Assembly: GCA_965279515.1 (NCBI GenBank)
Contig: CBDIID010000003.1
Location: 2,560,001-2,624,000 of the forward strand
DNA length: 64,000 bases
Direction: 5' to 3'
Origin: Turneriella sp.
GTDB taxonomy: Bacteria; Spirochaetota; Leptospiria; Turneriellales; Turneriellaceae
Below, in pieces: positions 25,322 to 28,892 of this stretch. The position numbers and the translations under genes are program-made. Position 1 is the first letter of the stretch, and each line of letters starts with the position of its first letter. The notes beneath the pieces were generated by a model, which worked only from the letters and a program-made list of their open reading frames with translations, was not told the DNA's origin and made no database searches.

Positions 25322-26122
25322 ATGATGCTGTTCGCGGAAATCGTGGGCTTTTTCGTGGTTGCGCGCATCTTCTTGCACAAGCGCTTCTTGCCTTTTTGTC
25401 GATTCCCCCTGCGAACGCGAAGTTACGCTGGACCCTCGTTGCATTGCCGCTTTTGGCGCATTTTGCAGACCAGTATTATTATCGGGTGCTGGGTGGCGCC
25501 GCGATTTTCGGCAAACCTAAATGGATTGTGCCGGGAGATTATCTCATGCCACCGCTGGTCATCGTTACCATATTCTTCATTTTAACGATCAATTCATTCT
25601 TTAAAGCGGTATCGTCTGCAGAAAGACTTTTGGCAGCCGAAAACGCGGCTTCTGAAAAACTGCTACTCAACATTTTGCCGGAGAGTATCGCACGCGAACT
25701 CGAAAAGCTCAAGACCATCGGCGACAGCTATATGTTCGCAGGGGGTATTCCGGAAAAAAACCGCACGCATGCCGTCGACTGCGTCATGGCGGCGCTCGAG
25801 GTCCAGTCGTTTATGAATCAGATGAAAGACATCAAGAGCGGCCAGAACCTACCCTACTGGCAGCTGCGCCTCGGCATCCATTCGGGCGATCTCGTCGCAG
25901 GCGTCATCGGCGATAAGAAATTCGCGTACGACGTTTGGAGCGACACCGTGAACACGGCAAGCCGCTGCGAATCGTCGGGAGTTCCAGGCCAAACACAAGG
26001 GTGAGATCGAAATGTATTTCGTGCGCGGCCTCAGGCCCGAATTACAGCGGGACAACCAGCCGCGCGTTCCGAATGAGAAATTTAAGGCACTTTACACCGC
26101 TCTAAGCGCTGCGTCAGCCTAA
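25322..26122 (+). pseudogene. Class III adenylate/guanylate cyclase pseudogene with two internal deletions and frameshifts
   Basis: LLLNILPESIAREL is fused directly to EKLKTIGDSYM, so the VLFxD segment is missing. After ESSGVPG the frame shifts to AKHKGEIEMYFV...TAA at 26120-26122. The 5' membrane part is split across frames; the 5' boundary is approximate. Confidence 0.8.
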
Positions 26123-26992
26123 CGTCTTCAGGTACTGGAAGAGCGCCTTAATTTCGGTATCGGTCATCTTGCTGAGGTTTCTCCAAGGCATGATGGCATT
26201 GATCTCTGAACCATTGGGCCGTTTACCGGTGCGCAACGCGGTGATAAACTGCTCTTCATTGTAACCTTTAAGGCCCGCGTTGGTGATGTTCGACGCTGGC
26301 GGCCACTCAGGCGGGGCACCCTGAATCGGCCCGCCGGTGAGCTGGTAGTTATGGCAACCCGTACACGTCTGAGCAATGTATTTTCCGTACTCGACCGTCA
26401 GACCGGGTTTGACTTCGCTCACCGGCTCGGCGTTGTGGTCGATCTTTTCCGCAGAAATGAAGACAGGTATCTTACCTAAAAAATACAAAATTCTGCCGAC
26501 GGGGCCGGCGCGTAAGGCCGGCGGCGTATTGTCAACAGCGGGTACCGTGCGCATGTAGGCGATGATACGGCCGACATCCTGATTGCTCATGCCCTGAAAA
26601 TCTGTGGCAGGCATCAACAGTAGCGCACGGCCGTCTTTACCGACGCCATGGCGGATCGCCTTTTCCAGGTCGAGATCGTTGCGCGACGCGAGCACTCCGC
26701 CCTTGCCCGTTGTCAGGTTTGAGCCCGTGAACTTGCCAATCGCCGGGTCGTCGATGAAGGTTTTTCCGGCCTGATTCTCGCCATGGCAATCGCCACAACC
26801 GCGCGAAATATAGAGCCGTTTACCCTCAGCAATATCCGCTGCCGCAGTGTAGACAGGCACGGGATGATCTTTGACCTGGAAGGTCTGTGCCATACGCCTC
26901 GAGGTAATAAAATAAACAATGCCGATAAAGAGTGCGATGAGGCCAAGCAGTACACCAAGACCTTTGGCGAGGCGTTTGAAGATTTTTTTCAT
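26114..26992 (-). CDS. Membrane-anchored diheme cytochrome c
   Basis: N-terminal TM; CGDCH and CTGCH; NLT/NIT and MP motifs in each domain. Confidence 0.92.
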   Translation of the reverse strand: MKKIFKRLAKGLGVLLGLIALFIGIVYFITSRRMAQTFQVKDHPVPVYTAAADIAEGKRLYISRGCGDCHGENQAGKTFIDDPAIGKFTGSNLTTGKGGVLASRNDLDLEKAIRHGVGKDGRALLLMPATDFQGMSNQDVGRIIAYMRTVPAVDNTPPALRAGPVGRILYFLGKIPVFISAEKIDHNAEPVSEVKPGLTVEYGKYIAQTCTGCHNYQLTGGPIQGAPPEWPPASNITNAGLKGYNEEQFITALRTGKRPNGSEINAIMPWRNLSKMTDTEIKALFQYLKTLG

Positions 26993-27693
26993 GCGACGCG
27001 ACGCTTCAGGAATGTCTTAAGCCTTGTAAAGAACTGCAGGTGCCGTAAGGGTGCGTTGAGCCAACCTCCCGTTATACAGTAGTGCTGGTCATGCGGCGCC
27101 GTATGGTGCACGGCGTGGTTTTCAGGAGAGAGGATAATCCGCCATTTCTGCAACGCGCGGACAAACTCAGGTGGGCGGTCGGTGTGCGCCCACTTGTGGA
27201 TCTGGTTTGTGAAAAAAATCGCTGTCAGAAAGAACCATGTCCAGACACCGATAAAAAAACCCATTTCGCCATGGGCAAAGAGCAACACGCAGGAAACAAA
27301 CGGAAGCGAGATGAGACAGTTGGCACCATTGGTTTCGAGATAGCTGTGCCGTGTGATCGCCTTCGCATCCACATGGTGCTCGCGGAACGGGAAAATAAAC
27401 ACACGGCCCAGGACCGGCGTATCGGGGTTACCGAAATTGTCAGCGAGAAAGTGCACGAGGCCCGAAACAAAATCGGCGGATAGAAGAGCGGCGACAATCA
27501 GCAGCAACAGGAGCCATCCCACCGCATCATAACTCACCCAAATCTGCGGCAGCTGCCCCCAAAGCGAAATCATGAGAACCGTCATGGCCGAGACAAATGC
27601 TGTAAGGCTCAGGAAGTCCAAAAGCGCATGCCAGCCACTGTAGACTTCGGGCCGGGCGGGTGCATGGTGCACATGGGTTATGCTCGATTTCAT
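26989..27693 (-). CDS. carF: CarF/TMEM189-family lipid desaturase
   Basis: DFVSGLVHFLAD.FG...FREHH....ITRH...ETNG...NQIHKWAH...HAVHH..PH..YCITGGWLN His boxes; ATGA overlap with the cytochrome c gene. Confidence 0.88.
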   Translation of the reverse strand: MKSSITHVHHAPARPEVYSGWHALLDFLSLTAFVSAMTVLMISLWGQLPQIWVSYDAVGWLLLLLIVAALLSADFVSGLVHFLADNFGNPDTPVLGRVFIFPFREHHVDAKAITRHSYLETNGANCLISLPFVSCVLLFAHGEMGFFIGVWTWFFLTAIFFTNQIHKWAHTDRPPEFVRALQKWRIILSPENHAVHHTAPHDQHYCITGGWLNAPLRHLQFFTRLKTFLKRRVA

Positions 27694-27704
27694 GGCAGCT
27701 TTCT

Positions 27705-27731
27705 TACGAGTAGGCCTGCGATTTGGATTTA
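27705..27731 (-). promoter_or_regulatory. ECF promoter driving carF-cytochrome c: TAAATCC-N16-CGTA
   Basis: Minus strand AAATCC at 27730-27725, 16-nt spacer, CGTA at 27708-27705. Confidence 0.75.
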
Positions 27732-27749
27732 TTTTTACTGTGAAAAAAA

Positions 27750-27776
27750 TAAATCCATTGCAGGGCCAGCCTCGTA
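27750..27776 (+). promoter_or_regulatory. ECF autoregulatory promoter: TAAATCC-N16-CGTA
   Basis: AAATCC at 27751-27756, 16-nt spacer, CGTA at 27773-27776. Confidence 0.75.
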
Positions 27777-27801
27777 CTGATTATGGTCGCCCACAACGGC
27801 C

Positions 27802-28380
27802 ATGCGCGACGTGCCAGACAAAGAACTCATACGCCGGGTCAGGGAAAGGGACAAGGCCGCGTTTGAGGAACTCTATAACCGGCACGCTCCACCCGTGCTG
27901 GGCCTCGCCACGCGTATGTTACGCGAAGGTGCGGCGGCCGAGGATGCCTTGCAGGATACATTTCTCATTCTCTGGAATAAGACCGCGCTCTACAGCGATC
28001 GCCGCGGCGCGCTGCTCAGCTGGCTCTTCGCGGTCTGCCGCAACATCTGCCTCGACCGCCTCAAACGCCCGGGGCAAAAACGCGAGGTCTCGGTGTCTGA
28101 TACGGTTTTGGCCGGGTTCAACAAATCGGGGTGGGATTACCACCAGGGCGAAACCAGTTATGCCGAGGTGCATGCCATGGTCACCGGCGCGCTCACAAAA
28201 CTCTCAGCGCATGAACGTGAGATTGTGGAACTCGCTTTTTTCTCCGGCCTCAGCCATTCGGAGATCGCAGCGCAACGCGCGATGCCTTTGGGTTCAGTCA
28301 AAAGCCTCATCAGCGCCGCGCTAAAAAAGCTGCGCGGCGAGATCCGGGAAAACTGGCAATATGACGGAAGTATGGACTAG
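27802..28380 (+). CDS. ECF sigma factor (RpoE/SigK-like)
   Basis: AFEELY.RH...AEDALQDTF...W...SWL..V.RN.CLDRL...GLSHSEIA.....PLGSVKS. Confidence 0.93.
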   Translation: MRDVPDKELIRRVRERDKAAFEELYNRHAPPVLGLATRMLREGAAAEDALQDTFLILWNKTALYSDRRGALLSWLFAVCRNICLDRLKRPGQKREVSVSDTVLAGFNKSGWDYHQGETSYAEVHAMVTGALTKLSAHEREIVELAFFSGLSHSEIAAQRAMPLGSVKSLISAALKKLRGEIRENWQYDGSMD

Positions 28381-28382
28381 AT

Positions 28383-28892
28383 ATGAAAAAATGGCAAACG
28401 CAAACCTTCGATCAAATTGCGACTGGTAAGAAAAGAAGCACGGTAGCAGAACTGCTTCCTGCCCGGCGTAAATTCGCCGATGACGTCGAGCAGCTCTCAC
28501 AGCTACTCGCCCACACACCTAAAAAGATAAAACCCGATACATCAGTCAAAGACCGCCTGATGGCGCGACTCGACGCAAAAGCCCCTGCAAGCGATGCCTT
28601 CGTTATCGCTGAGGCCGACCGCCAATGGAAAACCGTCTTCCCCGGCGTCAAAGAGTGTGCTTTGTCAGAGGGCGATGGCAGGCTTTCACGCCTGCTGAAA
28701 ATCCGCAAGGGATTTATCCTGCCCCCGCATAAACACCGCGAGATCGAGCAGGCCTTCATTCTCGAAGGTCGCTGCTACTCCGGCAAAGTACTGCTGCAAA
28801 AGGGCGATTATTTTTTTGCGCATGCGGATACGAAGCATGCGCGCGTCAAAGCGCTCGAAGATTGCCTGATTCTGCTGGTGGCGCACCGCTGA
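28383..28892 (+). CDS. ChrR-like anti-sigma factor with C-terminal cupin
   Basis: P..SVKDRLM anti-sigma helix; W...FPGV, LPPHKH...E...ILEG...GDY......H cupin; no HxxxCxxC. Confidence 0.8.
   Translation: MKKWQTQTFDQIATGKKRSTVAELLPARRKFADDVEQLSQLLAHTPKKIKPDTSVKDRLMARLDAKAPASDAFVIAEADRQWKTVFPGVKECALSEGDGRLSRLLKIRKGFILPPHKHREIEQAFILEGRCYSGKVLLQKGDYFFAHADTKHARVKALEDCLILLVAHR

Follow-up and report, generated by a model that had tools for sequence, protein, structure and literature searches.

Gene organization of the locus

We analysed a 64,000-nt stretch of the Turneriella sp. genome, hereafter the window (assembly GCA_965279515.1, contig CBDIID010000003.1, positions 2,560,001 to 2,624,000 of the forward strand). 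In it, genes for a CarF/PEDS1-type lipid desaturase and a diheme c-type cytochrome point away from genes for a sigma factor of the extracytoplasmic function (ECF) type and a cupin protein, the latter being its predicted anti-sigma factor. The source genome (G000; 4.9 Mb, 99.99% complete) was compared with the Turneriella genus set (n = 14; genome identifiers G000–G011); L-numbers denote extracted loci or contigs. The features are, in window coordinates:

26114..26992, minus strand: diheme c-type cytochrome, membrane-anchored; 292 amino acids (aa), two PF00034 matches, CGDCH at 66 and CTGCH at 210
26989..27693, minus strand: CarF/PEDS1-type lipid desaturase, sigma-linked paralog; 234 aa, PF10520 with E = 1e-51
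27705..27736, minus strand: predicted ECF promoter of carF and cytochrome c; AAAAATAAATCC-N16-CGTA, 11 nt upstream of the ATG, 22.8 bits
27743..27776, plus strand: predicted autoregulatory ECF promoter; AAAAAAATAAATCC-N16-CGTA, 25 nt upstream of the sigma ATG
27802..28380, plus strand: ECF sigma factor; 192 aa, nearest solved relatives Rhodobacter sphaeroides RpoE and SigK
28383..28892, plus strand: predicted soluble anti-sigma factor (cupin); 169 aa, PF12973 with E = 6e-13

This gene layout is directly observed. According to the list of open reading frames (ORFs) and their translations all four genes are intact. The carF and cytochrome genes overlap in TCAT at 26989–26992 (ATGA read on the minus strand), and a 108-bp gap (27694–27801) separates carF from the sigma gene. 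The four genes, the overlap, the gap and the two mirror-image motifs within it lie where a first-pass annotation of the window had placed them. Contigs from runs X2 and X4 have 0 differences over the stretch; they are possibly its source. Run X1, presumed to be RNA, matched with a single 187-base contig, which is no evidence of transcription.

Predicted twin promoters and probable sigma control of carF

The gap contains AAAAATAAATCC-N14-CTCGTA once per strand, with TAAATCC..CGTA at 27731–27705 (minus) and 27750–27776 (plus). Both copies are identical at 18/18 anchor positions. When the gap was dinucleotide-shuffled 300 times, the best result was 14 and 18 was never attained, in a test whose motif layout was taken from the earlier observation; a sigma-70 scan of the gap found no promoter. 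The sigma factor is encoded in 5 of the 14 genus genomes and is preceded in all five by a site of the general form A5-7-N1-3-(A/C)ATC(C/T)-N15-16-CGT(A/T); an equivalent site precedes it in both informative metagenome contigs. The -10 element CGT(A/T) is found in 18/18 sites, and the -35 element consists of an A-tract and (A/C)ATC(C/T), with no GTG. In four of seven sigma promoters an ATG lies 6 nt past CGTA (in frame in G006 only), which fits a transcription start there.

A scoring matrix was built only from the five sigma promoters, the carF sites being outside the training set. With this matrix, out of 9.8 million genome positions, the two G000 gap sites take rank 1 (the training site) and rank 4. 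When 15 carF upstream regions were scored, the four sigma-linked promoters reached 18.2–22.8 bits, whereas the 11 unlinked regions reached at most 5.9 bits. The carF promoters of the metagenome contigs L132 and L134, both of which also carry the sigma site, score 23.6 and 23.1 bits. The twin ECF-type promoters of the first-pass annotation are supported. Their -35 element is an A-tract followed by AATCC rather than GTGATC.

The mirror-image arrangement could also be explained by an operator or hairpin unrelated to the sigma factor, the gene order being due to chance. In G000 the 13-nt arms are 8 nt apart and form a perfect inverted repeat, and A-tracts are common between genes. However, every arm keeps CGT(A/T) 15–16 nt downstream in all species while the distance between the divergent sites varies from 5 to 730 nt, and a single copy stands before pdhC in sigma-positive genomes only. 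Because of the variable spacing we regard the sites as two separate units instead of one hairpin. The hairpin/operator reading of the inverted repeat was rejected for this reason, and the explanation as a whole is very improbable.

Since the linked carF promoters score high, the unlinked copies score low and a third target tracks the sigma factor (see below), it is very likely that the ECF promoters are used and that the sigma factor controls carF directly, as had been proposed. This holds for the linked copy, but the second carF of G000 has no such site. In G011, where the sigma gene is not beside carF, AAATCT-N16-CGTA occurs 18 nt upstream of the only carF (frequency of the core motif 8e-4 per 100 nt), which is no more than suggestive of sigma control.

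Further predicted targets

In G000 the site with the second-highest score is 63 nt upstream of pdhC (C3:4261394, minus), a gene found in 12/14 genus genomes. This site scores 21.9–31.6 bits in 4/5 sigma-positive genomes and at most 4.0 bits in 7/7 sigma-negative ones (Fisher p 0.010, post hoc); the motif tracks the sigma factor across species. Sigma presence requires 4 changes on the genus AGPS tree, and the sigma-positive genomes are therefore not all one lineage. Downstream of pdhC follow an esterase and then a 7TM-DISM cyclase, an order also seen in the sigma-negative G002 and G009. In L134 and in G004, the exception for the pdhC site, the genes for esterase and cyclase instead follow the cupin gene immediately. 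A further strong site in G001 precedes an O-methyltransferase gene without a match in G000.

A loose pattern search in five genomes gave 30 matches compared with 19 for the reversed control. For this reason only conserved, high-scoring sites were kept. Accordingly, a 26.6-bit site of G011 was not counted because it lies inside a coding region, nor were the G000 sites C3:991234, 2123458 and 3997924, which are inside or against ORFs or have an imperfect -10. Of the G000 sites with an intact CGTA, the three with the highest scores do not precede a crt gene; no search was aimed at crt genes.

By eye, 12/12 genomes (L094–L105) have TTGAC some 30 nt upstream of the pdhC start codon, a further promoter, of housekeeping type, below the ECF site.

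Sigma factor and predicted cupin anti-sigma factor

The best solved match of the sigma factor is R. sphaeroides RpoE (E = 2e-22), followed by SigK. No NCBIfam family other than the generic one was above its cut-off, and the ECF group is therefore left unnamed. The nearest outside matches are about 40% identical, two of them being named Actinomycetota.

The cupin protein is encoded in the same five genomes. Its best solved match is ChrR (E = 9e-8), for the cupin part only. The protein has no hydrophobic segment and is thus predicted to be soluble, with an N-terminal domain of about residues 1–63 and a subsequent ChrR-type cupin. Residues H116, H118, E122 and H152 align with H141, H143, E147 and H177 of ChrR and are invariant in 8/8 sequences, a conservation read directly from the alignment. 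The ChrR-type zinc finger (H-x24-H-x3-C-x2-C), however, is absent in 8/8 aligned anti-sigma proteins, and the score against TIGR02451 is 41 bits at a cut-off of 124.5. Hence the term ChrR-type, as applied to this protein in the first-pass annotation, is appropriate for the cupin with its four ligands but not for the missing His/His/Cys/Cys zinc finger. The literature used for comparison here and below includes PMC9131029, PMC8156234, PMC6852236, PMC6432622, PMC12655853, PMC9758184, PMC7826278 and bioRxiv 2025.10.10.681575. The ChrR response requires E147 and H177 (PMC6852236), and in the description of ECF11 an N-terminal zinc finger "may" be present (PMC7826278, supplement).

A model of the sigma-cupin complex scored 0.78, with 0.03 for the best of three controls; the mark for such models was reached by 116/157 solved pairs and 2/215 mismatched pairs. 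Residues 1–63 of the cupin protein contact sigma regions 2 and 4 in the model, the runs share at least 75% of their contacts, and the predicted local distance difference test (pLDDT) value of the partners is at least 78. Because a like complex has already been solved (2Q1Z), the model indicates likeness only and is not proof of binding.

CarF desaturase and its paralogs

In an alignment with myxobacterial and Leptospira homologs, CarF keeps nine histidines (H81, H106, H107, H116, H166, H170, H193, H196 and H197). Asp85 and Phe103 are also kept, and the D85-F103-H116 spacing (18, 13) is that of mouse D100-F118-H131. PEDS1/CarF activity needs the nine histidines together with the Asp and Phe that correspond to D100 and F118 of the mouse protein; the residue matching CarF H116 distinguishes true PEDS1 from plant and alphaproteobacterial homologs, and the H113 equivalent is His in PEDS1/CarF and Arg in the FAD4 type (PMC9131029). 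A structure model (pLDDT 83) has four long helices (20–54, 58–87, 118–139 and 142–169), the His clusters following helices 2 and 4 on the same side; the sequence has four hydrophobic peaks. A structure search found no solved structure related to CarF. Together with the PF10520 match, the conserved residues support the earlier identification as CarF, and the protein quite probably has PEDS1 chemistry, provided that the precursor is available. As regards the precursor pathway, an AGPS homolog is encoded in 14/14 genus genomes (E = 2e-90 to a solved AGPS).

The PF10520 family occurs in 95/190 genomes of the class and in 12/14 of the genus. In a 48-row tree the genus carF genes form two paralog groups. 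One (96/90) comprises the four copies linked to the sigma gene together with G007's cytochrome-linked copy, and the other (100/99) comprises the carF genes at a thioesterase/peptidase locus, including the second copy of G000. The latter is located at C3:2702595-2703233, flanked by a thioesterase/tRNA on one side and a peptidase C45 (AAT) gene on the other (L021, L114); this locus is conserved in the genus and has no ECF site upstream. Leptospira CarF is the sister group of both paralogs, and the L. interrogans homolog complements M. xanthus (PMC9131029).

Several irregular family members were seen. The carF gene of G005, a genome without the sigma factor, is broken by an internal deletion and a frame change with loss of two His boxes (L027:9562-10170), for which an assembly error is possible. 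Divergent third PF10520 genes with 25–28% identity are present in G006, G007 and G008 (L028, L029 and L030); one that was aligned keeps the nine histidines, and its F103 equivalent is absent.

Linkage across genomes

The carF gene is divergent from the sigma gene in G000, G001, G004 and G006, that is in 4/5 sigma-positive genomes, and not in G011. Eight metagenome loci comprise three close relatives and five distant cupins; L132 and L134 show the same divergent layout, and the L133 contig ends inside the sigma gene. Outside the genus, a sigma, cupin or cytochrome neighbour was found at 0/42 carF loci (flanks of 1.5–6 kb; at least two loci are duplicates). A core motif was present at one of the 42 (L042); it was dropped, as it overlaps TTGACA and the genome has no Cupin_7 match. 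Among the loci examined, the sigma/cupin-carF arrangement is thus found only in the genus. The supposed neighbourhood linkage is supported within Turneriella and in two metagenome contigs and was not seen at the 42 loci outside the genus. Related cupins are encoded in ten other genomes of the class, with an adjacent sigma gene in six of the eight loci examined.

In G006 a 194-aa ORF without a Pfam match is inserted between the sigma and carF genes (L024:6024-6608). A look-alike precedes AGPS in G000 (C3:1896239-1896823).

Comparison with known systems

The Turneriella system resembles RpoE-ChrR of R. sphaeroides (ECF11) in that the sigma gene is followed by a gene for a soluble anti-sigma factor with a C-terminal cupin and four ligands (PMC6852236, PMC7826278). 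Further common properties are the -10 element CGTA, autoregulation (predicted in Turneriella), and likely targets that include both a c-type cytochrome and an enzyme that modifies lipids. In contrast to ChrR, the 169-aa Turneriella protein does not contain the zinc finger of His6, His31, Cys35 and Cys38. The ECF11 promoter is GTGATC/CGTA, whereas the Turneriella -35 is an A-tract plus AATCC, and the photolyase and the furan-fatty-acid operon of the RpoE regulon are outside the predicted Turneriella regulon. The host is a spirochaete of a free-living group, and the likely target lipid enzyme is of the PEDS1 type.

The second precedent, the CarF-plasmalogen-CarR/CarQ pathway of M. xanthus, likewise ties a nine-His PEDS1-type desaturase to an ECF sigma system (PMC9131029, PMC8156234). 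There, carF is unlinked and is expressed at a steady level, acting upstream of a membrane anti-sigma factor with six helices, whereas in Turneriella the soluble cupin switch probably has a second carF copy as a downstream target, so that the order is reversed. As for Leptospira CarF, an AGPS homolog is present and no fatty-acyl reductase (FAR) was found. The Leptospira-class loci examined differ from Turneriella in lacking an upstream motif and any neighbouring ECF, cupin or cytochrome gene.

In zinc finger and regulon, and less clearly in the promoter with its different -35 element, the system departs from ECF11; it is not considered a member of ECF11, nor, with its soluble anti-sigma factor, of CarQ/CarR. 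It is a new wiring of known parts, conserved within one genus. In the literature searched, which did not extend to most subscription papers (the primary CarF paper of 2019 among them), neither a CarF linked to an ECF/cupin pair nor this sigma factor was found. The earlier idea of a myxobacterial lipid enzyme combined with a ChrR-type switch in a spirochaete is retained with regard to CarF, the twin promoters and the linkage, but not with regard to the zinc finger, the -35 element, the core RpoE targets and linkage beyond the genus.

One review describes the regulation of plasmalogen synthesis at the transcriptional level as largely unknown and reports steady expression of carF in M. xanthus. 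The locus represents a bacterial case of a predicted stress-inducible PEDS1 with exactly placed predicted promoters and a candidate regulon of three operons. As a natural ChrR variant with the cupin ligands and without the zinc finger, the anti-sigma factor bears on the debate over the site of singlet-oxygen sensing, and the locus bears on the role of CarF in spirochaetes.

Proposed mechanism

We propose that the soluble cupin protein holds the sigma factor inactive. An oxidative signal (lipid peroxidation or singlet oxygen) would act on the predicted metal site of the cupin and free the sigma factor, which would then transcribe its own operon, the second carF copy (here together with cytochrome c) and the distant pdhC-esterase-cyclase operon. 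The output would be extra vinyl-ether lipid, which would protect the membrane as a sacrificial antioxidant and add to that made via the housekeeping carF copy. The chances of this sigma/cupin oxidative switch as a whole, driving its own operon, the carF paralog and the pdhC operon, appear evenly balanced. For the signal alone, an oxidative nature is slightly favoured by analogy with the described systems; singlet oxygen specifically is less likely than not, and feedback through plasmalogen is possible.

Several observations weigh against this proposal. The pattern His-x-His-x3-Glu..His is a general cupin metal site. Photolyase and a cfa/amine-oxidase/DUF1365 operon, which are core RpoE targets, are present in 5/5 sigma-positive genomes, and no site of at least 14 bits was found in the stretches examined (the operon start was assessable in 4/5 genomes, the G004 contigs being too short). 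Moreover, the cfa/amine-oxidase/DUF1365 operon holds its own MerR/partial-B12 regulator, and the pdhC-esterase-cyclase operon does not belong to the known singlet-oxygen targets. The G011 carF site has no A-tract and scores under 6 bits, and a site upstream of carF was found in 0/10 of the other class genomes with a related cupin. In four Leptospiraceae-type loci (L178, L181, L182 and L183), (G)AATCC/GATCC-N16-CGTA precedes both the cupin gene and a convergent gene that we take, from the appearance of its sequence, to be FecR-like. With regard to the enzyme, CarF is under the NF045946 equivalog cut-off of NCBIfam (199.5 vs 500 bits), and a FAR domain was found in 0/5 genomes by a search whose control was equally blank. 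The ether precursor route is thus incomplete as found; precursor supply is likewise reported open for Leptospira.

The same regulon might respond to another signal, the cupin binding a metal or a metabolite such as a lipid-derived or 2-oxo-acid ligand. The sigma factor would then tune membrane lipids, pyruvate dehydrogenase E2 and the cyclase for nutrition or the envelope, and a LitR-like regulator would handle light stress. The missing zinc finger is consistent with this, as are the classical photo-oxidative genes, which have no motif and lie with the MerR/partial-B12 regulator, the further targets (pdhC-esterase-cyclase, and the O-methyltransferase in G001) and the different neighbours of related pairs elsewhere in the class. 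Nevertheless, carF is the most consistently kept target, singlet oxygen cleaves plasmalogens, and the sole cupin anti-sigma factor described in the supplement passages of the ECF reclassification answers singlet oxygen or peroxide (PMC7826278). We consider this explanation rather unlikely.

The cfa operon that carries the MerR/partial-B12 regulator (L131, G000:C3:1402021-1409924) has the order cfa, MerR/partial-B12 regulator, amine oxidase, DUF1365, cfaS, ORF and a gene of the major facilitator superfamily (MFS). A gene for a SOUL heme-binding protein lies divergently to it, TTGGACAAAA occurs twice upstream, and the order is the same in six other genus genomes examined. It is a candidate LitR-type light operon for furan fatty acids; class II LitR clusters with a comparable MerR/partial-B12 regulator are light-induced (PMC9758184).

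Cytochrome c and a possible lipid signal

The cytochrome has one hydrophobic segment, starting at residue 11, and its best solved relatives are the cytochrome subunits of sugar and alcohol dehydrogenases. Given how heme c is attached, a c-type cytochrome that has a single N-terminal anchor should lie on the periplasmic side. The gene was found in 10/14 genus genomes and lies apart from carF in 6 of those 10; it follows carF in G000, G001, G005, G007 and L132, and was not found in the sigma-positive G004 and G011. Where linked as in the window, it is likely co-transcribed with carF. The histidines of CarF face the cytoplasm (PMC9131029). Because of the predicted topology and the patchy linkage, a role as electron donor for CarF, suggested by the first-pass annotation, is unlikely, and the cytochrome would rather be an accessory, dispensable periplasmic member.

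These data also bear on a full combination of both precedents, in which the CarF plasmalogen would be the singlet-oxygen sensor, its cleavage product would release the sigma factor and the cytochrome would donate electrons to CarF. In both precedents an oxidisable lipid is placed upstream of the anti-sigma factor, namely plasmalogen for CarR and, for ChrR, furan fatty acids made by sigma targets (PMC6852236). All five sigma-positive genomes contain carF, and the cytochrome gene follows it at the five loci named above. Opposed to this are the different membrane sides of CarF histidines and cytochrome, the genomes in which the cytochrome is missing or apart, and the anti-sigma factor, which is soluble, unlike the membrane protein CarR; the signal could instead come from a furan-type operon, which is present as well. 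This combination is improbable.

A related variant, unlikely though somewhat less so, is a third lipid-gated singlet-oxygen switch. Plasmalogen breakdown, in place of the furan fatty acids of ChrR, would release the zinc-finger-less anti-sigma factor, and the sigma factor would make more plasmalogen via the dedicated carF paralog. The cytochrome could here promote vinyl-ether cleavage, not synthesis; a plasmalogenase activity of cytochrome c is mentioned in PMC9131029.

Other genes of the window

A remnant of an adenylate/guanylate cyclase gene, apparently shortened internally, occupies 25396–26004 and ends just before the cytochrome gene. At 30620–31421 a second ECF sigma factor is encoded together with a small partner that contains Cys/His; a hydrolase gene and a thioredoxin-like gene come next.

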